Positions 1 to 62,112 are shown, counted from the stretch's first letter. The stretch is DNA of 62,706 bases from Rhizaria sp. SCN 62-66 (GCA_001724265.1 MEDY01000067.1:62001-124706), one strand, 5' to 3'. The notes: a model not told the origin generated them from the sequence alone. Program-made: numbers and translations.

Positions 1-3000
1 TCGGCACTTGGGTGTGGAGACAATGATGTACCCCACCCCAGAAGTCGTGGGCACGGCGTGGAGCTGGTTCAAAGTGACCAAGATCCCGCACACGGTGGTG
101 CGGCGCATGCTCGAGAACTACCAGGCAGCCGTGTCCAACGGACTGCCGCGGTCGTTCCTGCTCTTCTCGTCGCTGCCCTTCACGGACCGCATTGACGCGG
201 TGCACTATCACGGCGCGGAGGCGCAGCTCTCGGTACGCAACGCAACATGAAATAACTTGCAACTATACACATATTACTCCTGTGGTGAACTCCGTGTGCT
301 ATTCAAGTTGCTCACATCGTTGTTATCGTGTATCTTACCTTATTCGCTCAGTCGCGCCGCGCGTTCCTGGGCCAAAGTCGTGTCGTCACGCGCGGTACGC
401 GTCTCGAGCAGCAAAGCACGCTTGTTATTGAGAACACCATCACAGACGCAACCACTTTCTCGGTCGACGTGGGTTTCGCTGAAGAAGCACAAATAATGTA
501 CGTTGATGCTGCTACGCGCATGATAACCTACAGACGTATGACTTGTTGTCACAAAAGAAATATCAATCGCATATCAAACGCAATAGCCAAACTTTCACAT
601 TATTTTTCGATTCGCCATCTCCTATTTTTCAGAATCGACAACGTTCCTGGTGTTATCCTCCCCGACATCATCGTTCCGGTCCCGCCTGTGGTTCCAAGCG
701 AGCAAGGTGAGCTGCCCACGCTTGTCGACACTGTCGCGGAGAAACAAGAGGCGCAATCGGTCGCATTAGAGGAGCTCAAAAGTCCTTATGCACACCCACT
801 TGGCACACTTGATCATGACGATACTCACAACGCCATCAACGATGAAAATGACTCTGCTGATAAAAATGACCGCAGCAAGTTCGATGATAACGGTATTCGC
901 CGCGCACGCCGGCGCGGCAACAAAGACAGTGCGAATGACTATGGCAGTGACCCAAACAGCAACAGCAAAAACAGCGCTGCTCGTAGCGGCGGCGCAAAGC
1001 CCACCCCGATTGCAAGCACGTTTAAGCGCGCACCAGCCGTTTTTGCTGCGGAGCGCACGCGCCAGGCAATGGCGGTGCTGGAGCACAAGCAGGAAGAAAG
1101 ACGCGAACGTGCCCAGCGCAAACAGTAGCAACGCAGCGCGCGGGGGCGCGGACGCAGGCGCGGAGGTGGACGGGGACGTGGCGGACGACGAGGACGCAGT
1201 GGGGGTGGAAAGACAACAGAGCCCAGCAACGTAGAGAATGCTGTTTCCGATAACGCATCTCCGTTGGACATCTCTCCCACATCCCTATTACGCCTTGCCA
1301 ACAAACTTTCGACGCTATCCGACTTAGCCCCAACTACAGACAAAAACTCAAACTCCCTAGATGTTCCCGCAGATAGCGTCGTCGCGCACAACACAGGTGT
1401 TACTGGTGCAACTGACGACGATGAAACGGCACCCGTGCTGCCAAGCAGCTGGACGCGACGTGGACTGAGTCCTGCTGCTCTTGATGCACTTGCTGCAGTT
1501 GGCGTTCACGGCGACGCGATTGCGCGCACAAATGTCCGTACAATCGGCAGCGAGCATCGCCACATTGTAGTGGCAAAGGACTCAAGTGTGCGCCGTGCGC
1601 CAACTGTGGGCGCTGGACGCAGCGGCGTGCGCGGCACCCTTGGCGTAACTAAGGCATCCGCAATTGCTGCAATCAGCAAACGTGTGAGCACTTTGTCTGT
1701 TGGCAACAGCGATGGTATCGACAGCGATGATGACGATAACAATGACGACGATGTAAGCTCTGATGACAACGATATCGACAACGTTGTATTTACTTCGCCG
1801 CTTCTCTCGAAGACGTTAATGCAACCGCAACCACGTTTTGCTCCGCTCTCGGTGACCGGCATCCCACTGACTAAGACTACAGGAAAGCCCGGCAGCAGTG
1901 ACTCCAACAAAGTGACTGTTGCGCCAGCGCCCGCGCCGCTGGTGTGGAGCGAGCGCAACGATATCGAGTTCACAGGCGGCGTTAACACTCCGGAGGCGCG
2001 TCAATACCGCGACAGCATCTTTGCTAGTGCTAGTGAGCAGTCGCAAGCCAAGAAAGTCACCACACTGCACATCTCTGATGAGCATGACCCTGAGTCGTCC
2101 GAGGAGTTACAGGCGGACGCAGAGATGCTTGATACATTGGCTGCTATTGCTGCAGGCAGACCGCTGCCAAACACGGATGGCGCCGGCACTGGCGCCGGTG
2201 CGATGCTAGCACGCGCGGTGTCTGTGGCTGCAGCTGCGGCAACCACTGTGGCCGCAACCCTGAGTCAGGCAGTGACAAATGCTGTGACGAGCAATAGTTG
2301 GGGCTCAATGGTTGCTGCCGCGGTGGGTGCAATGACCGCGAATAACTCTGGCGATAAGAAGAGTCACTCGATTCCAGACGCAAACGCCGACGAGTTTAGT
2401 GACAATGACGATGAGTATGACGGTGATGATGATCATATGGACGACAATGACAGCAGCGGCCTTGCTGCCAACGACGGTGAACTCAGTGGCAGCGGTGGCC
2501 ATCGCGCGTCAACACTTGCTACACAATTGCATAGCGATACTAGCAGCGCTGAAAGCAGCACTGCGCTCTCACGACTTGGTAGCGCGCGCGGCGGGCTCGC
2601 AACTCAGCGCAGCAGCAATGCGCTAAGCTTCGGCAACAAAGACCCGTCTTCAGCCGTGTCACCCGCAATGGCGCGCGAACATGGGCGCAAGATGAAGACC
2701 ATGCAGACGCAGATTCTTCCCTTGATTGATTTGATTGGGCTTGCAGAGTCTTTTTACGTCACGTTTGGACTCACATTCCTGTATCAGACCGTCATCGGCT
2801 TTGGTGTACGTCTAATTTCCACAAAAAAGCATTGAAATCTAATCCCACGTGTTACACTCGGTTCCTATTGTTCGATTTATTGTCTGTTTATCTCTATCTA
2901 TAATCAGCTGTAATTTTTCTCTTGCCTATTGTCGCGCAGGGAGAGTACTCGTTGGTCGTGCCGCCTAACACGGCCCACGTGGGCCACATCGTCCACCACC

Positions 3001-3980
3001 TGGGCTACTCACACGTGCCCTTCAGCGTCGACCTGGTGCGGCAAGAGACGTACTGGCCCGCGCAGTGGATTGCGGACATGCATCTCCCCGCGGACCCGGT
3101 CAGTACGGTCGACGCAAACAGGTTTTCGCTGCTCGCAATGCGCGGACCGAAGATACACCGGCCCACCGTCACAGCATCAGCAATAGCGGCGGCAGCAGCA
3201 GCGCGCAACGACAGTTGCGAGACTGCTCAACGTGCGGCGAGTGCACTGTTGACCTGTGCGGAACCTGTGGGTACGAAGCGCGAGAGTGCAGAAAGTGTGG
3301 ATACGGAACATGTGGGACCCGTGGGTGCGGTGCACAGAGTGCGCACGGAGAGTGTGGGTGGCGGCACTATGAGTACACTTGACCGCAAAGGTACCGGCCG
3401 CGCGCCCCTTAACATCAACGCTAAGCACAACGCTGCTGTAACAGCAGCGGCAAGTGGTGATGCAACCAATGCGCAAGTGAAGCCGCAGACGCTGTTCAGC
3501 AGCGGTGACGACAATGCCGGCTCAAGTTCAAGCAAGAGCGCTGAAAAGACTAACAGCGCCGCGGACAATGCCGCATCTAGTGGCAGCAATGCGGCGACAA
3601 ACGCAGCTTTATCCTTAACTGCTGGGAGTACTGATGTAAATGCTGGTGTAAGTGCTGGTGTAAGTGCTGCCGCGCTGGCGGACTTGCGTCGCGTGCTCGC
3701 GCGCGAGTCCTCCGCCACTTCAAAACGTGAGTCGAGCTTTCGCACAATGCAGACGTCCTCGACAGGGTTCCTGACCGACTTTTGCGTGAACCCGTTCCTC
3801 GAGTCAGACCCCGTGCCATTCACAGTGCGCGGCGCGTCGGTTGAGATGGACCTGTACTCACTGGTGAACCCCCTGGGTCTGGAGCACCCGGCGTACGAGC
3901 TGCACCATTTCGCCATTAGCGGGACGTACTCGGCTACCAACACGTTCTTTGTTGAGTTCGTAATTGAGCGCACGTCATGA
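1..3980 (+). CDS. 5'-truncated multi-exon gene with one in-frame TAG; unknown protein, possibly an aerolysin/natterin-like beta-pore-forming fold with long low-complexity inserts
   Basis: Exons <1-232, 352-497, 633-2805, 2940-3980. Donors GTACGC/GTACGT at 233, 498, 2806; acceptor AG ends at 351, 632, 2939; splicing keeps the frame. ORFs 328..1128 and 1264..2835 share a frame and are separated only by TAG 1126-1128 (RKQ*QRSARGRGRRRGGGRG...). Ends TGA 3978-3980. The fold guess rests on recalled motifs only. Confidence 0.7.
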
Positions 3981-4697
3981 GAGTGTGATGGGGCGACGAT
4001 GGGTGCCGTGACTATAATTGAGCTTAGCAACGCTGGCGTGATTGTCAGAGTGTTTAGAAGGACTAACTATGTTATTGTACAGCAGTTATTGTTATATTTT
4101 GTGAATGTGATGTATGTTATGACTAATACAGATTTTGATTGAATGATGTTTGTGTTGACTTGAAGTATTTCTGGCGCAACGAGATATCCGTTGAATTGCG
4201 ATAAAACCAGCATTTGTGGTGGGACCGATGAGCGGGAGAGGGGTGGACTCGAGACTCTTCTTTGGTATCGAAGTAACATGAATCAGAATCCGTTGTCCTT
4301 AGTTTCACTTGTATTTTCCGAAACAATCATAGATGAATTATTTGCTTTTCAAATTAAGTACCTAGAAAATATCATTAAGAACGCAGAATTGATCTCGAAA
4401 CTCATCACACTCTGCTTTGTAACGTCCGTAATCCCTAACCCAGCCCTTCTTCTCTCAGCCCACCGCACTGTATCAACCAAAAGATCCCGCGGGCATTGAA
4501 TATATTTTCTCCATGGGTAACCTTATTGCCCCCGTGGCGACTAAGCCCGTTCTTATCAACGGAGACTGGGTCGAGGCCACGTACGTCCACACTCTTCTCA
4601 TCGCTATATTCGCGAACTAATTGCTTTTTCTCTCGGCGTATTGCTCAAAGGCACATTTTAACCCTCTCTCAATCCTTTTTGTAGCATTGAACCCGGC

Positions 4698-6137
4698 ATG
4701 AATGAGACGTTTTCCTTCTCCATCCCCGACCTGGCCTACTTCCTGTCCTGCGCTGACCCCGACAACGCCGACGCCGCCGCTGCTGCTGCCGACGTTACCC
4801 TGAGCAACGCGGAGCTGAGCCTGCTGGTTCAGGTCGAGGTGCTCTCGGGCGCCATCGAAGGTCTGTATGTGGCCGAGCAGGCGACGATGCCCAGCGCGTC
4901 CCGCTGTGTGCTGCAGCAGCACCGCCTCGCCTTCTGTCCCTACCCGCACTGCGACCGCAACGGCGGACGCGCATTCAACACGTACGTCCAACACACGATG
5001 AGCATGATCCTGATCATATCTATCACCTGAAAGTCACCTTGCGTGATAAAGCAACTCCTCTCTTACGGTGGTATCATTACTATCAGCTCCTCATCTTTGC
5101 TGCTCAATTTCTCATCTGTTTCTTCTACAACCTGATCTGGTTCACATCAAACCCCTGTTTGTCTATCGTTATCCCGCAACAGCTCCGGCGGCGCGTGCCC
5201 GCACTGCATGCTGCCCTCGTCGACCTTTACTGCCGTCTCACCGCAGCGCGACTCGACCGCGATGACCTCGGACTGGGCCTCGCTGCCGCGCGTGCGTGCG
5301 CGCGCGCTGACCGCCGCCGAGGAAGACGGACTCGAGGTCCCCGCAGACGCGACGCTGCGCGCGCAGCCCGCCGACGCGTACGCGCAGGCCGGCGGCGCGC
5401 TCACCGTGCGCCTGTTGCTCACCCCGCACTTGTCCTAGCTCCCCAAGACCTCTGCCTCCGCCTCCACCGCGGCGTCAACGTCGACGTCAGCGTCGGAGTC
5501 CGGTGAGACCGCTCCCGGCACCGGCCTCGCTGGCACGAGCGTGACGGCGGCGGCGCTGGCCAACGCGATCGACCTGCAGCCGCGCTCGCCGGCGTGCGGC
5601 GCGGCCTCGTGCGCGCCCGCAGGCGCCGCGCCGCGCGCCTTTCACGCCGTCGTGCGCGGCTGCGCGCTGAAAAAGCGCGACGTCGTCGACAAGGCCAAGG
5701 GCAAGACGGCAACGGGCGCGGCGGCGTGGGCGCTGCTGGGCGCCGTCCCCGCGCGCGTGCGCGTGCGCGTGGCTACGGCGCGGCTCCCGCGGCCCGCGGC
5801 GCTGCGCACTGGCGGCGTCGCGGCCCGCAAGCGCGCGCTGGCAAGCGAGGGCGGCGACGACGCCAACAGTAACAGCGCGAGCGCCGGCGACGGGGAGGAG
5901 AGGCCCGAGGACGAGCCCGCGGCCGTGGCCGCCGCCCACGCCGGCTGGGCCGCGGCCTGGGCGCAGCGGCGTGAGCGCGAGAGGACTCGCAAGCAAGCGA
6001 AGCAACAAAAAGGCCCTGCTGCCGCTGCTGCTCCTGTTGCTGCGCCTGCGAATACCGATGCGGCTGAGACGAATGAGGTGGCTGAGACCGAGGCAGCCGC
6101 GGGCGATGAGAGCAAGAGTGCTGAGGCGGCTGCCTAA
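4698..6137 (+). CDS. Two-exon gene (about 412 aa) with one in-frame TAG; C4 zinc-ribbon protein of unknown function
   Basis: Exons 4698-4981 and 5183-6137 (intron GTACGT...CAG, 4982-5182). Splicing joins CPYPHC...AFNT|SGGACPHC into a two-pair Cys ribbon. ORFs 5208..5438 and 5541..6137 share a frame, joined across TAG 5436-5438 (PHLS*LPKTSAS). Ends TAA. Confidence 0.7.
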
Positions 6138-6774
6138 GCTTATGTTTAAACATTTGCTCCTGACGACGCCCCCTTGCGGTCGGGGTGATCGTCTTGAGAT
6201 CTAGAAAGTGAAGAATCAATCATGCGATCCGTTCTGATGATTCGCGAAGTTTGTTGCTGTTCCTTTAGCAGCATTAGATGTTGCTATATATCCTCGTTTC
6301 CTTATTTGTGTCTTAATTCGTGCTTGTTTCAGTTAATTTTTAAAATAATCCTGTTGGACCTCGCCTTAATTTTCCGGAGGCGTCTCGATTGCAATCAATA
6401 CATGTGTGGCTGTGTTGTATTGTTGCTTCGACACACTGGCTTATATTATTTTTAAAATGTATTGCACACAAACTGTGCGCCGTCACAGTTAGAGGATTTA
6501 AGCTAGCAATGCTATAATGCGATTAAACACTACACACACTGCAAGCGATATAACAAGTTCTAGATAACATGTCATCGTTTAGGGTAGCATCAGCTAAACA
6601 ATAATGTAAGTAATTGGAGTAAATCAAATCAGTTCCTCCGGCCCCAGCGCCTGTACATAACAATCGGGGACAGTGCAACTCAGTGCAGCGGAGTTACATA
6701 CAGTGGATCAAAAAAGGGGCCTAAATATACCCCCTTTTTTCTCAAGTGTTGTTTGTCACTGTCACCTCGCCACA

Positions 6775-9387
6775 TCACTGGCCCCAACCCCAGCGCGCGC
6801 CTGCCGCGTCGGCCGCCGCCGCGCGCTCGCGCTGCTGCCGCGCCGCCGCCTCGGCCGCCGCCGCCGCCGCGCGCTGTCCGCCGCGGCTCGCGCCCCGGCT
6901 GCTGCCGACGTCGCCGGCCGCAGCCGCGGTCTGCGGCCGACTGCTGACATTATCACCGTTGTTGGCGGTGGTGTTGCCGCTGAGAGGATCGCCGATGCTC
7001 TTGACGATGCGGGCCACCGCGCGCTGCAGCGACGCCGCTGCCGCGGCCTCAGCGGCCGACGGATGCGAGTGGTGCTGCTCAGGCTGCTCCTTGGCCGGGG
7101 CGGCGGCGTCGCCCTGCTGCCCTTGCTGCCTCTGCTGCTGATGCTGAGACTGCGCCTGCTGAGGCTGTGCGAGCTGCTGCGGCTGCGCGGCGCGGGCACC
7201 GGCGGGCGCAGCGGGCGACGGAGCCGCCGAGCCACGCACTAACGCTGACACTGACGCTGACGCCGACGCCGACGCAGAGGTGGAGGTGGAGGCAGAGGCG
7301 CTGAAGGCTGCGCCGCCACTGTAGCTGTCGCGCCTGCCGAGCCCGGGGCCCGGCGTCGCCCCACGCACTCTCGCACCGCCACTGCCGCTGCCGCTATTGG
7401 GGTTCGTAGCAGCAGCAGCAGCAGCGGCAGCGCTGGCATTGGCGTTGGCGCTGGCGGTCTGGCGGCGACGAATGCGCTCGCCAGCCTCGCGCTGCCTGCG
7501 CGCACGGTCAGACTCGGGGAAACCCTGCGGCAGCGCGTACGAGTTGGGCGCCGGCGCGCAGTTGGAGTCGACGACGCAGCGCTTGACGTCACTGGCGGCC
7601 GCGGTGCCCGGCAGCGGCACGGTCATGACGCCCGTCGTGCTATCATACCCGCGCGTGCGCACGTTACGCGCAGTCAACCAGCCCGAGCGGTCCAGCGGCG
7701 CGGGCGCGCGCACGGCCGCCAGCGCCGCCGCCGTCGCCGTCGCCGGGCGCGCGCTCTCGGCGCCGCTGCCGGCGCTCGTCGCCGGGCGCGCCGTGGCGTT
7801 GGGCGTGAATGGGCGCACGGGCGGGGAGGACAGCGGACGCACGGTCTCCGCGATGGTCCCGTTGAGCGGGAGGTACTTGGGCCCGGGGCCTTGCGTGCCG
7901 AGCCGCGCGGCGCGCGAGTGCTTGTACGAGATGAACGGCTGCGCCTCGACGGGAGGGAAGCGCGCCGAGAGGCCCGTGCGCGCGGTGAAGTGCAGTGACG
8001 CGGCGGCCTCCTCGCGCGCCACGCGCAGCCGCGTCTGCTGCGCGGCGTCGCCCTCTTCCTCGTCGCCCGCGCCGCCGCCGTAGCCCACGGAGCGGTAGCC
8101 GCGACCGCGCGAGGCGGCGCGCGCGGCCGCGGCCTCGGCGGCCTCGTTCTGCTGCTGGTGCGACACGCCACTCGCGCCCGCGCCGGTGCCAGAGCCAGAG
8201 CCAGCGCCAGAGCCAGCGCCAGAGGCAGCTGCGCCCGCGCCAGAGCCGGAGCCGCCGCTCTGCGCCGCGGAGCCGGAGCCCAAGGCGGCGGCGCTGGCGT
8301 TGGCGGTGGCGGCGGCCGCGTTGGCGGCGGCAGCGGCGAGCGCTGCGGAGACCGGCGGCGCGCCCGTGGCAGCCCGGCGCAGCGCGCGCTTGCGCTCTGG
8401 CGCCGAGACAAACCCGGGGCCCAGCGAGGTGCGGGGGGCGCCACCGTCGACGCGCGCCCAGTCGGAGCCGAAGTCAGCGTGGTCGTAGCTGCCGGGGCCC
8501 GTGAGCGACAGGGAGCGGATGCGGCGGTCCTCGGCGATCTTGCGCGCCAAATCGTCCTTGAAGTGAGGCTTGAACGACGGGTGCGGCGCCGTGCGGTGCT
8601 TGTCAACCGTGGTGCTGGGCAGCGCGTACTTGGGGCCGGGCCCCGCGGCGCCGGGCGTGTGCTTGAGCTGCTCCTCGGAGATGAAGAAGCCGGTGAAGCG
8701 GCGCTCGGAGCCGAACTGGTGCTGCGGCGCGCGCGGCTCAGTCTGCGTGAAGCGCAGCGAGTAGGCGCCCGGCTCGGGCTGCACTGTGCGCGACGTCGTC
8801 AGCACGGGGCCCGGCTCCTCGGACGGCTTCAGCCACAGCCACGCTGCGCGCGTGGACGGGTCCGACACGTCGGTCGGCGCCGCAGCCAGCGTGGAGCTGC
8901 CACCGAAGCCGCCGCGGTCGCCGCCGGACGTCCCGGGGCGCGTTCCCGCGCCCGCCGCGACTGCGGAGGACGAGGACGAGCGCGCAGTGCCGCGCCGGGT
9001 GTGCGGGCGCGAAGAGGAGCGGGCGCCCGAGCGCCTGGAGCTGTTGTTCGCGTTGGCGGCGTTTGCAGCAGCGGCGGCGGCGGCGAGGCGGAGGCGGCGC
9101 GACTCGGCCAGCGAGCGCGGGGGCGCGCCGTGCCCGGCCGCGCCCGAGTCGTCAAAGCCGTCGTACATGGGCTCATTCGCGCCCGACGCGGCGGCCGCGG
9201 CCTCTTGGCGGCGCGTGGTGGCGCCCTGTGCGATGGCGCGGCGCATCGTGGTGGAGGAGAGAGGGAGGTCGCGGCCATCGAGCGTGGGGCGGCCCGTGCT
9301 GAGCGTGGACGCGATTGAGTACGCGCCGGGACCGGGGCCCGGATCCGCCACAACGTCAATGCGGCGGGAAAGGCCAAAGGTCGCCAT
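6775..9387 (-). CDS. SHIPPO/sperm-tail PG-rich repeat protein (ODF3/STPG-like axonemal protein)
   Basis: 870-aa ORF with repeated PGPGAY-type motifs (PGPGPGAYSI, PEPGAYSL, GPGPKYALP, TGPGSYDH, GPGPKYLP, PAPNSYALP) and linked F-G/S-x-x-R motifs (ATFGLSRR, QFGSERRF). Ends TGA. The frame stays open upstream to a pyrimidine-rich CAG acceptor near 9450, so a 5' exon may exist. Confidence 0.75.
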   Translation of the reverse strand: MATFGLSRRIDVVADPGPGPGAYSIASTLSTGRPTLDGRDLPLSSTTMRRAIAQGATTRRQEAAAAASGANEPMYDGFDDSGAAGHGAPPRSLAESRRLRLAAAAAAANAANANNSSRRSGARSSSRPHTRRGTARSSSSSAVAAGAGTRPGTSGGDRGGFGGSSTLAAAPTDVSDPSTRAAWLWLKPSEEPGPVLTTSRTVQPEPGAYSLRFTQTEPRAPQHQFGSERRFTGFFISEEQLKHTPGAAGPGPKYALPSTTVDKHRTAPHPSFKPHFKDDLARKIAEDRRIRSLSLTGPGSYDHADFGSDWARVDGGAPRTSLGPGFVSAPERKRALRRAATGAPPVSAALAAAAANAAAATANASAAALGSGSAAQSGGSGSGAGAAASGAGSGAGSGSGTGAGASGVSHQQQNEAAEAAAARAASRGRGYRSVGYGGGAGDEEEGDAAQQTRLRVAREEAAASLHFTARTGLSARFPPVEAQPFISYKHSRAARLGTQGPGPKYLPLNGTIAETVRPLSSPPVRPFTPNATARPATSAGSGAESARPATATAAALAAVRAPAPLDRSGWLTARNVRTRGYDSTTGVMTVPLPGTAAASDVKRCVVDSNCAPAPNSYALPQGFPESDRARRQREAGERIRRRQTASANANASAAAAAAAATNPNSGSGSGGARVRGATPGPGLGRRDSYSGGAAFSASASTSTSASASASASVSALVRGSAAPSPAAPAGARAAQPQQLAQPQQAQSQHQQQRQQGQQGDAAAPAKEQPEQHHSHPSAAEAAAAASLQRAVARIVKSIGDPLSGNTTANNGDNVSSRPQTAAAAGDVGSSRGASRGGQRAAAAAAEAAARQQRERAAAADAAGARWGWGQ

Positions 9388-9926
9388 GGGGGCTCGAGTG
9401 TCAAAGGCACAAACCTCAGGAAGGGTGGTGGCAAGAGAAACAGGTCGACCTGGGAAAGAACGGGAAAGAAGACTGTGTACCGAGGTATGTGTAGCGGTGT
9501 TGTAAGGAAAATAAGTTTAAATATGCATGATTCATATGGTCACATAGCTTATCATACATATTATAAAAGCACTGCACGATGATGAAAAGAAGAAGCATGA
9601 TGTAACGGAAACGAAATGGAGGCAGCAGCAAGAGCCTTGCCGCCGTGGCCCGGTTCGCAAAAAAGCCCGGGAGGCGGACAAAACCAAACCAACTCTGCGC
9701 TCTTTTCAAGGGCAAACAACACGTCTGATACTCGTTGTTTTACAACACGGATAGTGTCTATAGTGTTACCATGTAGTATTCTTTTCTTGCATTTACAGTC
9801 GCATTTATCACGAACCCACCTTAGGCGCCATCGGCCGCGCCCAACAACCCCCACCCGCATCGCACCCAGTCTCATCATCGCCCACCTCTTTCCGCCTCAA
9901 CTGCTTCTCTTTCGCTAATAGAGACA

Positions 9927-10564
9927 ATGTCTAGTCACGGCCACGACGACGGGCACAACGCTCACCCCCACTTCCCCCCCAAGGGTACGTCTCTCTCTTC
10001 CTGCCTCTACTGCGTCCCTTCCTAACTCGCGCTCCAACCAATGCCGATCATCTTCGCCACCCGCTCACCACTTTTGCTTTTCTCTCTTGCTCTGATGACA
10101 ACACCGTTCCGCGTGTGCAGAGGTTCACACCACCACCAAGGAGCTTGACGCCATGAACGTGCCTCTGCAGTTCCGCACCCAGTGCGTCGACATCTTCATC
10201 CCTCTCTGGCGCGTACGTCAATCAATCGCCACTATTTACTACATTTTGCGTTTTCTAGCGTCGAGTTCGTTGTAATCGCTTACTCTTTAAATGGTTTTGC
10301 GTTCAGTTGTATATCTCATTAACTGCATTATATGTTTATTCTCTTTTCTGTCGTGCCCTGTATTTTTCCTATCTCCGACGACAACAAAACCCTTCCCGTT
10401 TCTCCCATCACTGCTATCGACACCCTCACGCACAGTGCTGGAACAAGCAGCACGGCTTCGGCTGCGACCACTACAAGCATGAGTGGGAGCGCTGCAACGA
10501 CCAGCTGCTTGAGGAGCTCAAGGCCAAGAAGCTCGCCGCCCTTGCCGCCAAGAAGCAGCAGTAA
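9927..10564 (+). CDS. NDUFB7: Mitochondrial complex I accessory subunit NDUFB7 (B18), 92 aa
   Basis: Exons 9927-9984, 10121-10212, 10436-10564 (GTACGT donors, CAG acceptors; 279 nt total). Protein MSSHGHDDGHNAHPHFPPKEVHTTTKELDAMNVPLQFRTQCVDIFIPLWRCWNKQHGFGCDHYKHEWERCNDQLLEELKAKK...; twin CX9C and the E-x-D-A-x-x-V-P-L-x-x-R-x-x-C signature. Ends TAA. Confidence 0.85.
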
Positions 10565-15849: not shown

Positions 15850-16442
15850 GCGTCGCGGCCGCGCACGAATGCGCCCGATGTGAGTGTTACATAGAACTTG
15901 CTAGGTTATATTGACTTAATTATAGCTTCATTGTGGTGAATAAACTTGAATTATGATGTATTCTAGTCGTATAATATACATGTGTTGATCCCATCGAGTG
16001 CTCGACATTTCTTACGTACGAATACTCGAGAACAGGAGTATTTTGATGTCGCGGCTGTGACAAAGACGCTCGTTGGAGTTTCTGGCGTGGCAGTGGCTGA
16101 TACCTGGCGAGCCCAGAACACAAGTCTCAATATATCGCAATTTTCGTCGTCATATTTGAAATTGGCGTTGAAATCAAATAATATTTTGTACATTGGATAT
16201 TAATATTTAATTAAATCTGACGAGTACGTGATGATAGTACTACCTAAGCAATTTAGCTCAGCCATCTCCTCCTCACCTTTCCCATCAATATCGCATCAGG
16301 CATCACTCTCGCGTGCGAGGTTGATACCTGACGCAACAATCCCCCGAGCTTGGCGCGACACAGTCACATGTCTTAGAACGACGCCCCACAAGTAGCGTCT
16401 TCCTTCGATCACTCTGTATTGCACACAGCCTTCAACACAGGC

Positions 16443-16808
16443 ATGGCCGACGATCCTGCTGCAGCTGCTCGAGCAGCTGCCGCCGAGGCCGCCGCGTTCA
16501 CCTCATCGATAACTGCTGGGCCCGGCACTCACAACCTGTCTGCAACCGCGCATGTGCCATTAGCAGCGCCGATGCCGGCTTCCTTAGCGTCTCCTTTCGA
16601 GCACGCACTTCAATCAACGCAGCAGCGCCAACAATCGTTGGCATCCTCTGCTTCAGCATTCGTGCCGCAGCCGCAGCCACGTCCGCAGACGGGCTACGTC
16701 AGCGCGCCCATGATTGACACAGACAGCAGCAGCAGTCCTGCTGGCTCCAGCGACGCTAGCTTTGCCCCATCTGCGACTGCTGCGGCAGCTGCTGCGACAG
16801 CTGCTGCC

Positions 16809-16845
<37 letters not shown>

Positions 16846-22703: not shown

Positions 22704-23069
22704 ACGATGCCGATGATCCCTATACATGATAGTTGTAGACGTACGAATATATTTAGCTTAATACTACATAAGAAGAAACAGTGGATTTCGTTTGATTTCA
22801 AAATAACAACTATGTATTGAGGTCACAGCGCGCGCAATTGCAGGACTTTCATTGCTTCCATTTATAGAAACAGTATGCTATTTGACTGCGATTTTCGTTC
22901 GCGCGTTCGACTAACAAGGCCACATTAACATTAAATCAATGCAACCCTCGACTGGAATTGTGCGATGCGAGAACAGTGGGTACCGGATGGGTGGTGCGTT
23001 ACGCGTGCTTTTTCTTTGCGAAGAGCAAAGCGACTAACGGCATTGAGGTGCTTGTTAGGCGTCGAGTGC

Positions 23070-24367: not shown

Positions 24368-25966
24368 TTAGTCCTTGGCGTCCATGACACCGCCCTCCGC
24401 AAGGCAGTAAATGGCCTCGGCCTCCGGCAGACAAGGCGAGTCGTAGATCTTGCAGATGCGCTGGTCGCCGCGGCCTTTGCGCAGCATGAGACGCGTAGTG
24501 GACGCGTGCGCCATGACGTGTCCACCGATGGGCTTCTTGACGTCGGCGACGAACATGGCCGCGCCGCCGGGGTCCGCCACAACCTGGTTCGTGATCAGCA
24601 CGGCGACGTTGAACTCCTCGGCCAGCTTGGTGAGCTTGGAAAGGAACTGGCCCAGCTTCTGCTGGCGCTCCGCGAGCTGGCCGCGGCCGGAAAAATCGAC
24701 GCGGAAGAGCGCCGTGGCCGAATCCACGATCAGCAGCGCGTAGTGGTCCTCGATCATACGCGCCGCAGCCCCAGTCAGAAGGTCCATCTGGTGCTCGTGC
24801 TGTGCAGGGCAAAAGGAAACAAGATCCAGTCAATGAGTGGGATAGTGCTAGTTTGATGTAAGTGCAAGTCATCAGTGAAGTTAAATATAATTATCAAGTT
24901 CAGTTTGGTGATAACGCAGGAGATATTGCCAGTGAATAATGTCAATGCGCGCAGAGGGAAAGAAAATCAACAATCGTGTGACGTACGGTGAATGCACGCG
25001 CGACGCAAATGTTGTCTAGCACCGCGTCACCGTCGACGCCGAAGCGCGCCGAGATTTCTGCAATGCGCTCGGGGCGAAACGTGCCCTCGGTGTCAATGTA
25101 CATCACCTTGCCGTTGCCGCCGCCGGACGCAGTCGGCAGCTGCGCGGTCACGCACAGCGTGTGGCACAGTCTGAAAGAGGCAAATGTGCAGAGATGTTCG
25201 AGTCATCGTGTGAGCAAGCATGATATTGAGTGTGGACGCGTAGATACCGTGAGGAATATTATGATATAACGTTGCGCATACAGACTGCCATGCAACGCGG
25301 GCAGCGTCGACAAGGGAGGAACAAGCCCGAATCAAATTTAAGTCATTCTAGATAGCGTTCACGGCAAAGTGGGACTGACGTACTGTGTCTTTCCGGTGCG
25401 GAACTCTCCGAAGACCTCGGTGATGGACATAGACTCGATGCCGCCGCGAAGCAGCTCATCCAGCGCGGTCGAACCCGTGCTGATGTTGAGCACAGTCTTG
25501 CGCTTCTCGCGCATCGCGCGCGCGTTGATGAAGCCGAAAGAGTTGACCTAAGCGGATAAGAGTGGGGGACCGGGGGTACGTGAGTCAAAGAGGGTACGAG
25601 AGTGGATATAGCAAGAATTACGTCTATAACAACAAAACGACCACCGGTGGTAGCGGTGAGCGTGTGAACAAAACTTGAAGAGGAGCGAGATGACCTACTG
25701 CAACGTACCTTCTTGACGCACTCGATGAGCTTCTGGACCTTAACCTCGGAGAGGCCCTTGATGGAGGTGAGATAGGCGGTGGTAGCCATCATGACCGAGG
25801 CCATGGTATAAAGCCCGGCTGCCTTGAGCTTCTTAATGTCGGCGACGTTGATGCCCATGGACTCGAGCTTGTCGATCTCCTGTATACCAGTCTCTTCGAG
25901 CAGCGAGGGGTCGATCTCGATGTTCTCCTCGATCGCGTCGTCGCGAACTTCAAGCTCCATATCCAT
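24368..25966 (-). CDS. DMC1: Meiosis-specific recombinase DMC1, 345 aa
   Basis: Exons 25966-25709, 25547-25384, 25170-24987, 24799-24368 (1038 nt; three GTACGT donors). [41 protein letters not shown] and [14 protein letters not shown] are DMC1-type rather than RAD51-type (RTDYSGRGELSARQ, GGNI). Ends TAA. Confidence 0.9.
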
Positions 25967-32378: not shown

Positions 32379-32418
<40 letters not shown>

Positions 32419-50600: not shown

Positions 50601-53600
50601 CAACATCGTACAGGCGCGGCAACGCCGATACGTGCAGTAAACTGCAGTCTGGTGCAACTTGAAAGAATGTCGTGCGCGTTGCGTCAAAATGGACTTTAAC
50701 ATCGCTTGCGTCGATGACGCTTGAAAGCGACGAATGTGTAATTTCTGCCGTCTGCCGCCCGTAACGACCTGCGCTGTCAAGGCGTGTCAGCACTCGGAAA
50801 AACAACTTATTATCTGCAGACACGCTATAGATTACAATCTGTGATTGATAGCCCGTGACTCCAAGGGCTGCAATAGAATGCGAGTCGAGCACTGCCGCAA
50901 GCACAGTCGCCACAGGCGAAACAATGTTTGAGTTAAGGGAAACACGGAAGATGTACTGAGACGTTGTTGCACCCAACGCCTTCATCGGCCCTGTGCTATC
51001 GGTGGCAGCGACAAAGAGGCACTGGTCTGAAAGTTGGCTAAGCGTGTTGATGTTGGACTGAGGGCAGAAAGTCACAGCTGTGGGCAACAAATCCTTTTGT
51101 GTAGTCACCGTCTTACGGAAAAGTAAAGTTGGCGAGCTGTCTGCAATGCTAATAATATCGCACAAGATAACTTTGCTGCTGTCAAGGCTCGGTCCGCACA
51201 AAGCAATGGTTTCGGACATCGAGTCACCTGTAATTGCAGTAACGCGCACATTAGACGCGATGTTTGTCAGAGGACCAAGACTGAGTGTACCATCAGTACT
51301 TATCAAGATTTGACGCAGAGATGACGACAGCGTAACAATGTACAGTGATGCAGATGCAGCAGTCTGCCATTGACTAAAGAAAATTTTAGCGGTATACGGT
51401 TTGTCGTTGGCGCCTGGATATTGAGTCCGCGGTGCCCCATCAATAGGCAAAAGTAGAAAACCGGTGACCGAGAGTCCACCATCGCCAAACCGCTCGACAA
51501 GCACAACACGGTTATTGTTAGTATTAATGGCAATGTGCCTGCCGTCAGCAGCAACAGCAATTGAGCACTGCACAACAGTGCTATCTATTGTAGGCAGCAA
51601 TGTAGCAAATCGTGAAGATGACGAAACCCAATTACCCCACGGGGTGTTGCCGGAGCTGTTTGCTGGATTCTGTTGCACGCCGCTGGCAACAAGAAGGCCG
51701 TGTCTCATCATAGTGTACGTTACTAATGCAACGGGGTCAACCACAGAGCACACGGGCTTGCTATCACTGGGCTTATTTGGCATTATAATGATGCCAGGAT
51801 TGGACGTGACCTGGAAGTCGGCGCCAAACTCCCAGTTGCGCTCCACACCAGGTGAGCCAATGTGCAACGGGTTGTCGATAACGTTAAGTGCAGCGTTAGC
51901 ATAAGCTACGGTTGCAAAGTAGCCCCGTGCAGAAGCAAGCAGGGTGACGTTCATCAAGCGCTCAAGCCCAGAAAACGTGACGTCACTGTACTATGACGCA
52001 ACTGAAGTCGCAGTGATCTCATACATTATGCAAGACGTTTTTAGTGTAGAAGCGCAAGTGCTCCCACGAATCGATGTGTCGCTTCCGTGACTGCAGACAA
52101 GGGTAATTACTGCGGCTGTGCACACGTTGGAAGTTGTCGCTACAGCATTTGAATTACTAAACTCTGTGAAGGTCTCAATTGAAGTCGTACTTGCACCATA
52201 AGCAAGCTCAGGAGGCAAAACAACGATCAAGTAACCAGTTGTGCTCAGCTTAACGCGCATACGCCAACTCAGATTAGTAACACCATCGGAGCCGTGCTGA
52301 TCAATTGGCGTGTCCAAGGCAAGCGAACTCGCGCGGCCTAAGAAATGCACACGAGACAGCACGCCATCCGCTGATGAAACGCGGACAGGAACTACCTTTG
52401 AAGAATACCTTGGCAGTGCAGGTGCAGTAGCAGGAAATGTGGAAGTAAACTTAGCGACATTGCGAACAGTATCGGTCGGAAACTTAATTGTCACGCCGAA
52501 TGTCACAGCCTTACCGTAGATCTCCGGTAAGGGGTTTAAGTACGTGAGCTGGTATGTAAATGTGAAATTGCCGGCGGTCACAAAAGACGCAGGTCCACCA
52601 ATACTTGTGGAAAAGTGCATGTCTAATCCGTACGCAAGACCAAGCACAGGATCAAGTTGCCGCGATACAAATGAGCTGACAAGGGTTGACGCTCCAATTG
52701 TAAGTCCCACTGCGTCACCGGTGTAACTTAGTGTCAGTTTAACGTTATCAGTGATAAAATAAGATGATAACACAACTGTAGACATCATAACACGCACAGT
52801 CGTATTAATTTGGCCACTCTTGTCAATAGGACGCACGCCTTGCCCACGAACAGCAAATGTGACAATCGGCGCACGGTTCGAGGCAGAATGTGAGATGTCT
52901 GACGCCGCCACCTCAAGGTTCACGTACGAGCTCGTTAAAGGCCGCACGGGCGTGCTAGGTAGCACCATAACGCGTGGATCCGTGTACACAAGGAAATAAT
53001 ACGGAGTTGCGGCACTTGCATCAGTAAACATCGATGTTGGCAGAGTTGCGTTTTTCACGAATACATGAATGGTCGTATAAGGCTCAACAACCTTCGTGAT
53101 AGTGTTAAAAGCAATTGTAAAACTGCAACTAGTCCCGGCTGTGGCAGTAGCACCTGCAAACAGCTTAAGCTCACCGGTTAGCACGCTTGCACCACCAGTG
53201 CACTGCGTAATCGAGCCACCAGTAAGTGTGATGACACTGTTCTTGGTTATTGGCACAGGTAATGTCACAGCGATTAGCAAGTGCATTATAGCCGACATCT
53301 GCCCTCCCCGAAATCCAACAGAAGACCCAGTCGGAAGGCCAGCAACCTCGAGCTCGTAGGTACCACGCACAAACGCGTTAACGTAGTCACTGTTGGTTGT
53401 TGTTTGTGTCGTATAGACAATATCATCACCGACATCCTTTGTTACAGGATCAAGAAGGCGCATTGTAACCTGCTTGTTTGGCGCGCAGTAAAGTCCATAG
53501 ATACTCATTACCTCAGTAATTGAAGTGTTAAAAAGGTCAAATGTCATATAAATCAGCGGAGGTCCAGTCGCGGTAACCACAGGATCCAAAGACAACCAAC

Positions 53601-56600: not shown

Positions 56601-59600
56601 CAGTTGTCCAATAACTTGCATAGGCATCGCGATTAAGATAGGCAGCGTTAGTGCCAAAAAACTGCGAATAGTCTCCAAGAGTATTCCCCGTCGTAATGTT
56701 AAAGTTGTTTGCACTTATCGAGACTGCTCCAACGTTAGGCGAAGGACGGGTCGCGCTAATTGTCACGGAGCTATCGCCAATCATGGCACTGCTGCAAGCA
56801 GAAGAGAAGTTGATAATATATGTTGTTGCCTGAACGTAATCAGGGTGCAGCACTGAAATGGTGACGTACGGCGTAAACCGGATTGACTTATAAAGTGCAA
56901 CGGGGAGATCGCCAGTCACTTCATAACCAAAGTACTCGCCATAATACTCACTGCCTGTTGCGTACCATTGCTGCATCTTTGATTGATAGTTGATGGCATT
57001 GCCGAACGTGTTAATTAAGGCCGTGATAGCACCAGAACCAAAAAGATTGTAGCTGTTGGAAACTGTTCCCTGAATGCCATCGACCACAAATGTGTTGACA
57101 GCGTCCTTACTTGTCAACTGCGTGCATGAGCTTTTGTTCGAGGCAGAGATCATAGTACAGTGCTTCATCATCTCCGCAGATGTTGCTTTTGGTGCAGAAA
57201 TCAAAAATGAACTTGAAGTAATCTCAAAATTGAACGCATCTTGAGGCAATGTGATCATATACAAAACAAACTCCAACGTTTGAGTCACAAGAGTATTTAA
57301 GCCCGTTGCCATGGAAACGCCTGTTACAAAAGCGCGTTGCGTATACCGCGCAGCAATAAAAACTTCTGTTCCAATATTAAAAAAGTCTGTTAAAGGTGCC
57401 ACTGCAGTCTACCCAGCAAAAGAAAACGAAACTGATGCGTGGACATTGCCGGGGACGCACCTGTGGATATCCTCCGCGGTAAACGCAGTCGGGCAGACTA
57501 AGTTCACTGAGAACCAACGATACTCAGGGACTCCCGCATTGCAACGCAGAACAATAGATTTGCCCGAGGTTGTGACTGTCCAGTCGGTTGCCACCTCTGG
57601 CTGAATCTGCCCAGCAGATGGCGCGGTAGACGTTTTTAGCTTTGCGCCAGAAGGTTTGGGGCAGAAGCAGTCGTTGGTATCGGTGAACACAAGCTCGTTG
57701 CTCGATGTGAGAAATTTGGGAAGAATCATGTTAAGCTCATATGTCAACAAGAACAGACTGGCAGCAGCGTTATCATTTGAGAGCGTGCTCAAGGTTGTAT
57801 CAACAAGGCCTACTGAAAACGCTGTCACGTACGAGACGGGCAGAGCGGTAGTTTGTGGGATTGCAGTTAGGACTGTTCCATAGACTGTTGAAACAATTTT
57901 GAAACATGAAGAAAACGCATATGATGTCGCCGCCATAGACGGACTAATTTTAACTCTGAAGGTCGCCACCACGGCTAAGTCAAGAACGGTGAAGTCCATG
58001 TTGAAGTTAAGCGAAGACACTGAGGAACCAGCTGCGTCTTGTAGCTGCAGTGCGGAACACGTGCTAGAGAGTGCGAAAGATTTGCTTGTGCGGCCGGCAA
58101 AGTTGACACCAAAAATATTGATTGGGTCTGACTGGTAATCACTGCTGTAGCGTCCTGTGTAATACGAGCCTGACGTCATTCGCAGAGCTGTTGCAGGTAC
58201 GGGCGTCACGTCGCTGACAAACGTATACATCGGAAGGTCAATAACTGATTGATAGAGATTGACATCACTACTGGCAAGAGAGGGAGGTCCTACTGGGCTT
58301 CCTGAGAGGATGAGTTGTAAGGAAAAACACGATGAGCCAAGAGACTGTGGCCAGTTAACCGATCCTGCTGCCGTGGTCACAGTTACACCAGAGATCACAG
58401 CGTTACATGCGCTGCCCTTCGTACATACAGCAGGTACATTAAAAGTAATCGACGGGCTATTCGCGGAATTTAACGTGAGTGAACCAGATTGCACAATGGC
58501 GCCTGCAAAGTTCACATTGCATCCTGAAGAAGTCAAAATAAGATTGACACCATTACCTCCATTACCACCAATGACTGTGGCAAAGGTAAATGTTAAAGAG
58601 CGAACACGGGTCGTGGCGATGCTTGTCGCGGCCACAGATGTCGTTGTGAGAGTGAACGTTGTCGCCTCGTACGCCAGCTCATACGGCCCGATCTGGGTGT
58701 TGCTAGTTGAAGTAAAAGTATATGATCCAACTGTCATACGGAAGAAACTAGGGCCAAACCCAGCTGGATTATTTGTAGACACTGCGGAGGTTGTGGAAAA
58801 AACATTAGCTCCACTCACGGTAACATAATAGCCAAATGTTGACATAGAACCCATTGAAATCGTCAAGGTCGAAGTGCTTGATATCACAGCCGTCACTGAT
58901 GCGGCCCCGAGTGAGGATGAGCAACTAAGCGGCACTCCGGACGCAATTGAAGGTCCTGTCGTTAAGAAAGACATAGACGATAGACCGGCCTGAGAAGATA
59001 GAGGCAAAATGATGATGGTGATACTGTCCAGGAAATTGATTCCGAGATTTTCATAACCTGTGCTGTAGATATAGTAGGCCAGCTTAACCTCACTCAAATC
59101 GTTCATAACAATTACCATGACTGGGTCTGATACATACGATAAAGCGACGGAAATCATGGATGTCGAAGGACTCTGTAGAAGTCCAGAGGGCTCATGAATG
59201 TTCTTTAGAACAAAAGTAGCGAGGCCGTTTATACCAGCAGTAACAACACGTGCTGCCATTGCATCACACGAAAATTCACCTTGACCGGCGACAGTGCACT
59301 TGGTGCCCGTTCCTGCCTCCGTCGTGGAGTCAGAACCGTAGGAGAGTCGAGAGTCCTGTAGCTTAAAAACAAGATTGAATGGTGAGCCCGGAAGGAGAAC
59401 GACGTGCATGTAGATTGTAATAGTCACGAGCGTCGGTGTTGCCATCACAGAAGCAGGATTGATGACATTATTGACAAGAGTGCGTGAGCTTAAAACAGAA
59501 CCAAAAAACACGCCAAACTTTGGTTTCAGCTGCACATTGTCAAAGGGCTTAAGGATTTCCTCTGAGCCGTCAGAACGGACGAAAGAAAGCCGAAGATTTG

Positions 59601-62112
59601 CTATCTGTGACTCTGTAAAACATGTGTCCATCTGCGACTCAGTAAATCCAAATGTGCAAGTGACAATAATCCTGGACCACGTCAGCTTTGACATCACAGG
59701 TAAGCAGGTAAACTATAGCTTTGTCGAGGAAGCCGATGAAAATGAACAGGTCAAGCTTGTAGTGTAGGGCGCTGCCCCGGGCGTTTCAAATCCGTACTGT
59801 GCACTCGGACACAGGCAGCTATCTGCAGTTGAGAGGGCGAATGTACCACCAACCTGACTGGCGAGACTTGGCATAACAGAAATCTCGCGAGTAACCGTGT
59901 ACGAATAAGATGTGGCCGGGCTAGCCGTTGCATTAGGCAGGGCATTGGTGATGTGATAGTTCATCGCGCTCGGCGCTACGTTGGGGGATAGAGACATTGC
60001 TTCGCTCGCTGGATACATTGTGTAGCCACTGCTGGTAATAAGGAAGCAACTGAGAGGAACAGGCATCAAAGCATTTCCTGGGCGGACGTATAAAGTGATT
60101 GCAGGAAATTGGAACATTGTTATTGTGGGGATTGTAAAACTTTTTGTTGTAAGCCGTTCGCTGTAGCCAAGTTGTCCAAAGGTGTAGATACCAGCACATG
60201 AGCCTGTAATGGTGATGGTTATCGCACCAGCCACGGGCAGCGCCTCAGTGAGGCGCATACCACGGAATTGAATATCGCTTGACCAGACACGGTCAAAACG
60301 GTTCTCAAAATCATCTGATGCCACGAGCTGGTTTTGCCCAGCATACGAGGTAGGATTATAGTCGTATCCGAACGCTGGAGTACTATGTGCGACAAGGTTG
60401 AGATTGTAAGAAGTGTAAACATTTGCGCTTACAACTGTTACGGTGCCACTTTTCTCAGTGAAGTATACGCATCCGTAAGACACAGCATACTAAAGGTCTG
60501 ATGTGGATGAAGCAGTGACTATTACACCTTCAATTAACATATCATAATAATAGCCTGCTGTCGTCGCTCCTAACGAAAACTGGTAAGACGTGCTAGAATA
60601 TGAAACTCGCGAGATCCCAAATGCATTGCTGAAAGACAACGTGGTTCCACAGCTACCTGTTGAAGTAACCAGAACATTTGTGTTTGCTCGTGTTGCAGAA
60701 ACGTAAACACCAATCATGAGCGAAATGATACGAGTACGAGAAGATATACTTTTGACAATACAATCATAGACACTCCAATACACTCCAAACATATACTGTT
60801 CTGGATAAGTGGTATCACATGGATCTATCTGTTCGTAAATAAGCGTCTGAAAATCACTCCTCTGTTCAGCAGTCGTGTGCGTGTGATTGTGACTACCAGT
60901 ATTGCTGCTTACTGGAGCAAGGTTCTCGAGCTCCCCAGCAACTGATTCAATTGCGCAAATGGGTGTCTACGCAATCAACGGCTTCATAGTTTGGCGGCGC
61001 ATAAGATTCAAGCCAACACCAGTGCCAATGCGCAAACCTGAGCGAGAAGGGAGCAGCGCCTGCGTTTTCATGTCACTAGTTCTCGCTGACTAACTCGTGA
61101 CTTCAACTGCTGCATTCGGCTCGCCGCTGCTTTGATGTGAGGGATCAAGTACGGTTACCGTTCGTGACCAGCCATTAAAAGCTAACCGAAGACTCCTAGC
61201 AAGACTGCGATCACGGACATTCTCAGGGGGGTTCGAGACAATAACAGGAGAAATGTAAAAACTGAGTTTGCCTGCAGGGAGACCGATGCAGCGTAGCTCG
61301 ATACTGCGTGCACCAGGAATGCGGTTAGTCGCGCATCGCGTCCTTGCAAGGGCCTCGTTGTCACCGCTGTCAGTGATCAGCACCTTCGTCGCGGCCATGT
61401 CGTAGGTCAGCCGGCCGTTGCCGGGGAGCGTAACCGAGAGCACAGTGAGGCCCTCAGTGCGCATTGTCATGAGGCCACTCAAATCAAGCGCAGCGATGGT
61501 GTTGCCAATAACGCTCGCGCTCTCAGCAGGGCCGTCAGACGCGTTGTCATCGTGAAGCAGAGTGGCAGTGGGCTCAGTCAGCGGGGGCACAAGCAGCAGC
61601 GCGTCGGCAACCGAGGCGGTGGCGGGGGTCGCAGCGCCGTTGGCCGTGAGCCTGAGACATTCAGACAGCACGCTCGTCGGTTGCCTAAAGCCCCCAAAGG
61701 CGGTGAGATAAATGCGGACATCAGAAACTGTGAAGGCGGCCGTAGCGGTGCGAAGGCAGCGGACAGTATTAGGCGTTGTAAAGTCGACAATGCAGCCCTT
61801 GGAGGGGGACGTGAGCGAAATGGCGGTCAGGTTGAGCTGCTACAAAGATGGACAGGACCAATCAAGGGTCAGCGCAGTGTCGACAGTCGCGTCAAGGCCA
61901 AAAACATCGACTCCAAGCGCCACGGACGTGTAACCGAGAGTCGGATAGCAGACTGTGGAGGAGGAGGTGAGTGTGGCATTAAACGTCAGAACACCTCTAG
62001 CGACAGAAGCCGTTGCGAAAGAAGAGCCTGTTACACCAGTAGTCTGACCTAAGATAGCCATCGTAAGCCATAAAACAACGGCCCATAGAGACATGAGCCA
62101 ATATCGGATCAT
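35623..62112 (-). CDS. Giant intronless cell-surface polytopic membrane protein, 8829 aa, with 7 in-frame TAG codons
   Basis: ORFs 61840..62280, 61090..61671, 60490..60792, 59713..60483, 57409..59697, 51991..57402 and 35623..51957 are all in one frame. Every gap was read codon by codon; the only interruptions are TAG at 61840, 61090, 60967, 60490, 59713, 57409, 51991 (lowest coordinate of each codon). ATG 62112 gives a signal peptide MIRYWLMSLWAVVLWLTMAILG. Final stop TAA 35623-35625. Confidence 0.85.
36185..39705 (-). other. Multi-pass membrane region (about 9 TM) of the giant protein, split by a loop of about 800 aa
   Basis: Three hydrophobic helices at about 39700-39325, a long polar loop, then six more with HPNITRQFFMVLSC and FLYRGYKPTRYYWFLLEMFRK, motifs typical of protist Cys-rich polytopic surface proteins. 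Confidence 0.75.
40420..42357 (-). other. Ca-binding EGF, IPT/TIG-like and Cys-rich (ephrin-receptor-like/GCC2-GCC3) repeats of the giant protein
   Basis: DINECD...CVNTFGSYIC (about 42357-42247); PEVTSVYGC...GGDVRLAVTGTGF and PTISGIRGC...GGNTIELTGHNFG (IPT/TIG); CSPGQY, CETGYF, CSPGLYS, CPAGHYS, CPRGTFS, CPPGTFA repeats. Confidence 0.8.
42361..44088 (-). repeat. Eight tandem sushi/CCP domains within the giant protein
   Basis: Eight units of C...(A/I)xYxC.xG(Y/F/H)...C...W...PxC, e.g. ATYECLPGHTLGSGSLTLTCRADRTWSGTPPVC and ATYNCKPGFSV...RTCSSTRQWTPAEPTC. Confidence 0.85.

Follow-up and report, generated by a model that had tools for sequence, protein, structure and literature searches.

Is UAG a stop codon in the organism that carried the stretch MEDY01000067.1:62001-124706? 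This stretch of 62,706 nucleotides (nt), hereafter the window, is a 62.7-kb eukaryotic contig with genes on both strands, and four of its long reading frames, including that of a giant gene on the minus strand, are interrupted by TAG and by no other stop triplet. An earlier annotation (the original prediction), made from the sequence alone, had proposed that UAG is read as sense, probably as Gln, and that UAA and UGA still end genes. In the present analysis, UAG was found to be very probably a sense codon in this organism, with UAA and UGA as its stops, and Gln and Ser were the leading candidates for the residue that it encodes.

In-frame TAG codons and gene ends

All 11 in-frame TAG triplets were found at the predicted coordinates and frames, spread over four protein-coding genes (Table 1). 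When TAG was treated as sense, the minus-strand frame 35623-62307 was open over 8,894 codons with seven TAGs inside, and its longest standard-code open reading frames (ORFs), of 5,455, 1,805 and 767 codons, abutted in one frame. On the plus strand, the frame 16332-22703 was open over 2,123 codons, and the frames 289-2835 and 5136-6137 held one TAG apiece. None of these frames was fused when TAA or TGA was treated as sense. The eight confident coding frames (15,902 codons) contained TAG 11 times and neither TAA nor TGA, as had been predicted for the four interrupted frames. Among the off-frame stop triplets in the giant gene's two off-frames, 256 were TAA, 153 TAG and 491 TGA; TAG was the rarest at 17%, and with these shares as the basis the chance that 11 of 11 in-frame stops are TAG is about 0.17^11 = 3e-9. 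Each TAG was flanked by 40 to 5,455 stop-free in-frame codons. The pattern of GC by codon position ran unbroken across TAG in the GC-rich genes, for example at TAG 5436, where GC at third codon positions (GC3) was 0.91 before the triplet and 0.89 after it. TAG is a rare codon in these frames (11 of 15,902, or 0.07%).

Ten ORF ends could be fixed in the window, seven with TAA, three with TGA and none with TAG, and the end checked against homologues was that of DMC1 only. The earlier count of 11 gene ends (eight TAA, three TGA) was therefore right in finding no TAG, although only ten ends were fixable and TAA closed seven of them. Codes with no dedicated stop, of the Condylostoma, Blastocrithidia or Amoebophrya type, were not matched, given 0 in-frame TAA or TGA in the 15,902 codons.

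Two additional in-frame TAGs were rejected as sense codons. TAG 13965, which was picked up in the ORF scan, terminates a pyrimidine-rich intron; TAG 16374 lies 5' of the first ATG (16443) and 3' of a GTACGT donor at 16224, and is best taken as part of an intron acceptor or of the 5' untranslated region. The base after the 11 accepted TAGs was C in four cases, T in five, A in two and never G. CAA or CAG (CAR) directly followed three of them (1126 and 21618 on the plus strand, 61840 on the minus strand), and the other eight stood outside a CAR context.

The giant protein consists, in order, of an N-terminal signal peptide, about 5,000 residues without a Pfam domain, Sushi repeats, TIG, Ephrin_rec_like and DUF7630 domains and, at its C-terminal end, a conserved multi-pass membrane domain. 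The signal-like N-terminal sequence is conserved in the homologue P0152, and the C-terminal part has 13 homologues, 49-65% identical and all metagenomic. With its signal peptide encoded 5' of all seven TAGs and its membrane domain C-terminal, the protein can be made with both ends only by readthrough at all seven. The TAGs all fall within the first 3,374 codons (the N-terminal 38%) and none in the last 5,455 (P = 0.0012 under uniform placement), and the GC content of the TAG-bearing and TAG-free parts is little different (0.492 versus 0.524). Either the gene accepts TAG only where conservation is weak, or the place of the codon in the mRNA matters. The rarity of UAG and its confinement to the weakly conserved N-terminal 38% of the giant gene suggest a codon that is young or inefficiently decoded.

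Three side observations concern the same gene. It is without an intron, although other genes in the window have introns of 135-201 nt. An EGF-like stretch after the Sushi repeats was read by eye from the translation and has no Pfam match, and for some homologues of the protein there is a match to the TRP family PF06011.

Independent contigs, RNA and selection

The window sequence recurs in bioreactor, wastewater and activated-sludge runs of several studies. Run X1 may be the source of the window, and X2 belongs to the same study; X3 comes from a different study and X4 from a third. X2 and X3 each contained 0.94 of the sampled window words and X4 contained 0.75, and X8 is a poly(A) metatranscriptome from the study of X4. 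One of the DNA runs X1-X4 has contigs of up to 192,873 nt. The X3 contigs spanned six of the seven giant-gene TAGs, with 0 other letters in records 14 and 16, and the sole X3 difference across the compared stretch was one G>C, a change for which a CTA triplet offers no site. A JGI contig, L001, was 100% identical to 59823-61946 (2,124 nt) and had four TAGs inside. As the TAGs are intact in contigs of other studies, assembly error, one of the alternatives that the original prediction had named, is excluded.

The same codons can be recognized in protein databases. For five of the TAGs (codons 91, 341, 382, 541 and 800), standard-code fragments of the organism stopped at the residue preceding the TAG, and these fragments span residues 7-90, 215-340, 348-381, 441-540 and 545-799 of the giant protein. 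P0169, the window's own fragment of 1,773 residues (4 contigs), has by length arithmetic the extent that fits the first Met after TAG 1568 to residue 3373, before TAG 3374. Standard-code gene calling cuts proteins at every TAG, and the genes of this organism are consequently mis-annotated in public metagenome protein sets.

The giant gene is transcribed. The poly(A) RNA contig X8 record 29 (57305-57568) ran across TAG 57409 unspliced; window parts without X8 RNA cover are uninformative either way. X10 record 5 was not counted as a bridge of the same TAG, as it begins only 8 nt before it.

The strain in X4 differed from the window at 126 positions over 19.9 kb (about 0.6%). Forty listed differences, all of which lie in the N-terminal part of the giant gene where the TAGs are, were classified. 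One was a change from TAG to CAG; the other 39 comprised 21 synonymous and 18 non-synonymous differences, against an expected synonymous share of 0.308 from the mutation spectrum (P = 0.0023), corresponding to a ratio of non-synonymous to synonymous rates (dN/dS) of about 0.38. The TAG-bearing region of the giant gene is under purifying selection between the two strains. With UAG inside four real, selected genes, a product is made only if every UAG is read through.

Alternatives to a sense UAG

Under the standard code, the four genes would be pseudogenes or nonsense alleles in which only TAG appears by chance. A recent nonsense mutation would be expected to leave another strain with a sense codon, as is seen in the CAG of X4 at TAG 51991; this explanation is nonetheless extremely improbable in view of the 11 of 11 in-frame stops that are TAG (about 3e-9 from the off-frame shares), the absence of frameshifts across 26.5 kb, and the presence of six of the seven giant-gene TAGs in the X3 contigs and of four in the JGI contig. 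The dN/dS in the TAG-bearing region disposes of the pseudogene alternative that had been raised with the original prediction. It is just as hard to credit that RNA editing or the splicing of short in-frame introns takes the TAGs out ahead of translation. The three DMC1 introns are about 160-210 nt long, start with GTACGT, end with a pyrimidine tract followed by YAG and contain less GC than the exons. Three like introns were read from the sequence in gene A (498-632 and 2806-2945) and gene B (4982-5182), and all six share the GTACGT start, a length of 135-201 nt and a lower GC content. TAG can act as an acceptor here, in that 13965 and 16374 look like genuine intron ends, and GT...TAG stretches with a length that is a multiple of 3 end at 16877 (33 nt) and 5438 (147 nt), but neither of these candidate mini-introns has the GTACGT donor of the six introns read. 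The former (16845-16877) was rejected for its wrong donor; the latter (5292-5438) was rejected for its GTGCGT donor and for being, by eye, as GC-rich as the surrounding exon (GC not computed). In the 400 nt upstream of each of the 11 TAGs there was no GTAHGT donor, which removes the intron alternative foreseen by the earlier annotation. The run contigs reported no joint with intron-like ends anywhere in the giant gene, and the RNA contig over TAG 57409 had no joint. As a separate observation, the 5' splice sites at 498, 2806, 4982, 13788, 14842 and 16224 (plus strand) and 24986, 25383 and 25708 (minus strand) are all exactly GTACGT, an unusually rigid donor consensus.

It is unlikely that UAG carries a twofold, context-dependent meaning, in which it is efficiently read through in long genes and yet ends some genes or terminates in part, giving truncated isoforms. 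The low frequency of TAG and the placement of seven of seven giant-gene TAGs in the first 3,374 of 8,829 codons are in its favor, but 0 of 10 window ORFs end with TAG, and seven TAGs in one frame would demand near-complete readthrough at each for a full-length product. CAA or CAG after UAG is a context that favors readthrough; it is found at three of the 11 TAGs and is lacking at eight. Likewise, the ORF of P0152 stops a single residue short of the TAG 382 column, as partial termination would allow, but such a coincidence is expected by chance in about 6% of cases (a rough estimate, not computed by a tool).

The reading in which UAG is sense and UAA and UGA are stops, as originally proposed, is well supported by the fusion of frames with TAG only and by the TAA or TGA at every fixed ORF end. 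Several points weigh against it. In the window, ARAGORN found 0 tRNAs, hence no tRNA(CUA), and the Rfam scan found 0 families. The ten ORF ends are a small sample: if TAG closed 20% of genes, 0 of 10 would still be obtained with a probability of about 0.11. The runs were compared as assembled contigs, not raw reads. The RNA contig bridges only one of the 11 TAGs, and it contains two mismatches, one at 57484 and the other not located, so that the RNA letter at the TAG is not confirmed. The state in X4 of three or four TAGs falls outside the differences listed, which are 40 of 129. Moreover, the evidence on the residue is in conflict, as the strain difference points to Gln and the homologue columns point to Ser.

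By analogy with every characterised UAG-only code, UAG would be decoded by a dedicated tRNA with anticodon CUA that does not decode UAA, and eRF1 would have a weakened recognition of UAG.

The residue encoded by UAG

Gln stands somewhat below an even chance of being the residue and Ser a little lower; Leu is improbable, and any other residue is at most as probable as Leu. The triplet TAG 51991-51993 is CAG in X4, which fits Gln, and from synonymous and non-synonymous rates this strain difference favors Gln about 4-fold over another residue, as a rough estimate that was not tool-computed.

No Pfam domain extends over a TAG (0 of 11 inside a domain), and homologues of the giant protein were used for the comparison. 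Its first 1,200 residues, in an exhaustive HMMER search, yielded eight true homologues of 28-53% identity, and the set was widened with longer members of the same clusters. Nine column observations were usable, of which four were Ser (columns 91 and 541), none or one Gln and one or two Leu (Table 1). For codon 3374, a word-index protein search in which the best 7,999 candidates by shared words were scored returned only the window's own fragment, and self-comparison of the giant protein gave no internal repeats usable as paralogous columns.

The observations were then evaluated by an empirical likelihood, with a matrix built from the same alignments as the observations. Ser was best in set A (columns 91, 541 and 800; nine observations), with relative log-likelihoods (lnL) of 0 for Ser, -1.53 for Gln and -4.75 for Leu, and also in set B (set A plus the ORF ends of relatives; 13 observations), with 0, -3.39 and -9.63, respectively. 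In set C (closest homologue only; four observations), Asn was best, followed by Ser at -0.05, with Gln at -3.47 and Leu at -3.02. In a control on real columns, which is optimistic in using the same alignments as the matrix, Ser ranked first in 59% of resamples if Ser was true and in 1% if Gln was true. The column observations are few and non-independent, the protein is fast-evolving and Ser/Thr-rich, and unconserved sites may be where a rare new codon is preferentially found.

The assignment of UAG to Gln in the original prediction, which would be a code like NCBI table 15, thus gained from the CAG of X4 and lost from the columns, in which Gln accounts for at most one of nine observations and the likelihood ranks Ser first. 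One of the arguments given for it, that three of the 11 TAGs precede a Gln codon, has no force: the pooled likelihood ratio of Gln to Ser was 9-11, but gene by gene the lnL values were -6.11 for Gln, -6.54 for Ser and -5.83 for Leu, and values so nearly equal leave the argument without discriminating power. Leu is the least likely of the three candidates. A code like table 16, with UAG as Leu as in the rhizarian exLh, was not supported by one or two Leu in nine observations, by lnL values of -4.75 to -9.63 in sets A and B, or by a TAG share of 0.07% of codons.

Placement and relatives of the organism

The organism is probably a rhizarian, an uncultured GC-rich eukaryote from bioreactors or wastewater; this placement comes from one gene and is provisional. 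The top named DMC1 matches include the chlorarachniophytes Amorphochlora and Bigelowiella. A FastTree tree was built from 113 DMC1 sequences, namely the window, the listed matches of at least 300 residues and P0135. The window fell in a clade of support 0.83-0.98 whose named members are all Rhizaria (Paulinella micropora, Spongospora subterranea, Amorphochlora and Bigelowiella). Outside this clade lay every amoebozoan, excavate and fungus with a name, Carpediemonas among them, and the window's DMC1 showed no grouping with alveolates among the matches listed. The earlier view that the organism is not a fornicate was borne out by this tree; its own argument, that NDUFB7 implies a full complex I, cannot be retained, as NDUFB7 is without Pfam or PDB support.

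There seems to be no sequenced relative of the organism. Homologues of the giant protein all come from metagenomes. When metagenomes were scanned with the N-terminal 4,435 residues, the only match was a contig of the organism itself, with 100% identity, and no DNA of relatives was obtained. Genome contigs scanned with a profile and with a 50-nt exact pattern, and viral contigs scanned with the same profile, gave no match. The ORFs of four relatives, P0152, P0154, P0159 and P0167, end mid-alignment despite longest contigs of 8.7-29 kb. Their ends correspond to window codons 381, 1513, about 1222 and 525, and opposite these ends the window has A (beside TAG 382), T, T and D.

A clade may have the in-frame stops, and perhaps the code, in common. 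A bolder proposal, which is possible but doubtful, is that UAG is read as Ser throughout a clade of uncultured wastewater rhizarians rich in GC and that this reassignment has been caught early, with UAG rare, outside conserved regions and perhaps inefficiently decoded. If true, UAG as Ser would be a code not reported for Rhizaria and, with the relatives' copies broken in frame in standard-code calls, the trait would be older than this species. The recurrence of the organism in bioreactor and wastewater samples of several studies means that material should be obtainable.

Comparison with known UAG-only codes

A change of UAG only is a rare kind of code change that is already known, and the organism studied here is very probably a further lineage with it. 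As described in the cited text, UAG encodes Gln in Iotanema spirale (Fornicata), with UAA and UGA as stops (PMC5304391, PMC11687900), and Leu in the sainouroid rhizarian exLh (from Lygus hesperus), with 384 UAG in 71 genes, at conserved Leu positions (PMC5304391). UAG encodes Ser in the green alga Scotinosphaera, in which UAA is still a stop, and Gln or Leu in Protocruzia and several phyllopharyngean ciliates, as repeated independent cases with UAA as the main stop (PMC11687900). In one oligohymenophorean ciliate, UAA and UAG encode different residues (PMC11687900, PMC5304391). As far as these texts go, nuclear codes that split UAG from UAA are few, and those listed belong to a single fornicate, a single rhizarian, a genus of green algae and a few ciliates. 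No wastewater protist and no further rhizarian case was found in the literature searched on UAG-only codes, supplementary tables not covered. Rosculus vilicus is the only sainouroid genome reported in the text of its source and has 37.7% GC (PMC10770858).

Like Iotanema spirale as it is described there, the organism has UAG alone reassigned with UAA and UGA as stops, and Gln is one of its two leading candidates by the TAG/CAG strain difference. Unlike that fornicate, the window groups with Rhizaria in the DMC1 tree, with Carpediemonas outside, and the homologue columns give no clear Gln. With exLh it shares a UAG-only reassignment and probably the supergroup; however, UAG is common in exLh, as reported, against 0.07% of codons here, and Leu fits worst of the three candidates. 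The 2-kb bins of the window range from 44% to 74% GC, compared with the GC content given for the sainouroid Rosculus vilicus. An origin independent of exLh is plausible, and exLh is not placeable relative to the organism from one window. Scotinosphaera, from its published description, is similar in changing UAG only and in that Ser is the residue best backed by the homologue columns here; it differs in belonging to an unrelated lineage, and Ser here comes from few non-independent columns of a fast-evolving protein. The ciliates also combine a UAG-only reassignment with UAA kept as a stop, in the account cited, but the window carries several genes on one contig, and it has exons rich in GC (2-kb bins up to 74% GC) and GTACGT introns of 135-201 nt. 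Such multi-gene, GC-rich, intron-bearing DNA is unlike ciliate macronuclear DNA. A further lineage in which UAG is still rare would be a useful natural example of stop-codon capture.

Other features of the window

The features to which the analysis refers are listed in Table 1.

Table 1. Genes and in-frame TAG codons of the window, with their cover in other contigs and the residues of homologues opposite each TAG
Feature	Coordinates	Strand	Structure, open frame or cover	Homologue column
Giant gene, coding sequence	35623-62112	-	intronless; 8,829 codons plus TAA stop; 7 in-frame TAG
TAG, codon 91	61840-61842	-	in X3 record 16 and L001, no differences	S, S, Q or L, D, D; flanks conserved; Q/L depends on gap placement
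TAG, codon 341	61090-61092	-	in X3 and L001 contigs	N, G, S, S; poorly aligned
TAG, codon 382	60967-60969	-	in X3 and L001 contigs	no usable residue
TAG, codon 541	60490-60492	-	in X3 and L001 contigs	S, S, N
TAG, codon 800	59713-59715	-	in X3 record 16	L, V, V; one V becomes T if cysteines are aligned (by eye)
TAG, codon 1568	57409-57411	-	in X3 record 14 with 0 differences; RNA contig X8 record 29 across	S; weak second alignment
TAG, codon 3374	51991-51993	-	CAG in X4 strain (A>G at plus-strand 51993)	
PHD-finger, low-complexity protein, coding sequence	16443-22703	+	2,086 codons plus TAA; 2 in-frame TAG	
TAG	16875-16877	+	open codons: 166 upstream, 1,580 downstream	
TAG	21618-21620	+	open codons: 1,580 upstream, 360 downstream	
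Gene A (function not assigned)	634-3980	+	exon to 2805; intron 2806-2945 (GTACGT...CAG); exon 2946-3980 with TGA end; one in-frame TAG	
TAG, gene A	1126-1128	+	open codons: 279 upstream, 568 downstream; next in-frame Met about 250 codons 3'	
Gene B	4662-6137	+	exon in frame 4662-4981; intron 4982-5182 (GTACGT...CAG, 201 nt); exon 5183-6137; TAA end; joined frames fit	
TAG, gene B	5436-5438	+	no Met in next 232 codons	
DMC1 gene	24368-25966	-	4 exons; TAA end; reference for splice signals and placement	

DMC1, rebuilt from its four exons, gave a clean protein of 345 residues with the TAA end where its homologues end. Among the names that the original prediction had given to genes of the window, DMC1 and SmD2-like stood, with Pfam support from the DMC1/Rad51 and LSM domains, respectively. 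The matches to an Asp-protease (over 30 residues), AAA (E = 0.07) and DUF4551 (24.1 bits, cutoff 27) were weak, and SHIPPO had no Pfam match at E up to 0.01. The identity of the small Cys-rich ORF 10259-10564 as NDUFB7 was rejected: Pfam gave no family for it at E up to 1, and the PDB gave no match to complex I. The small two-exon gene at 10153-10564 (plus strand) has a Cys-rich product with Cys-x7/8/9-Cys spacings and a TAA end.

The frame of gene A is open from 289, and before the TAG it has in-frame ATGs at 496, 520, 538 and 1069 only. ATG 496 overlaps the GTACGT donor at 498, the probable in-frame intron of 135 nt (498-632) contains ATGs 520 and 538, and ATG 1069 is 19 codons 5' of the TAG. 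A non-ATG start, an upstream exon or trans-splicing is possible for this gene.

Exons in the window are GC-rich relative to the GC-poorer introns and spacers. A sharp GC contrast was also seen among neighboring genes: the giant gene has a GC content of 0.51 and a GC3 of 0.51, and its neighbors at 5184-9516, 16443-22700 and 26584-34113 have a GC content of 0.69-0.75 and a GC3 of 0.76-0.85.

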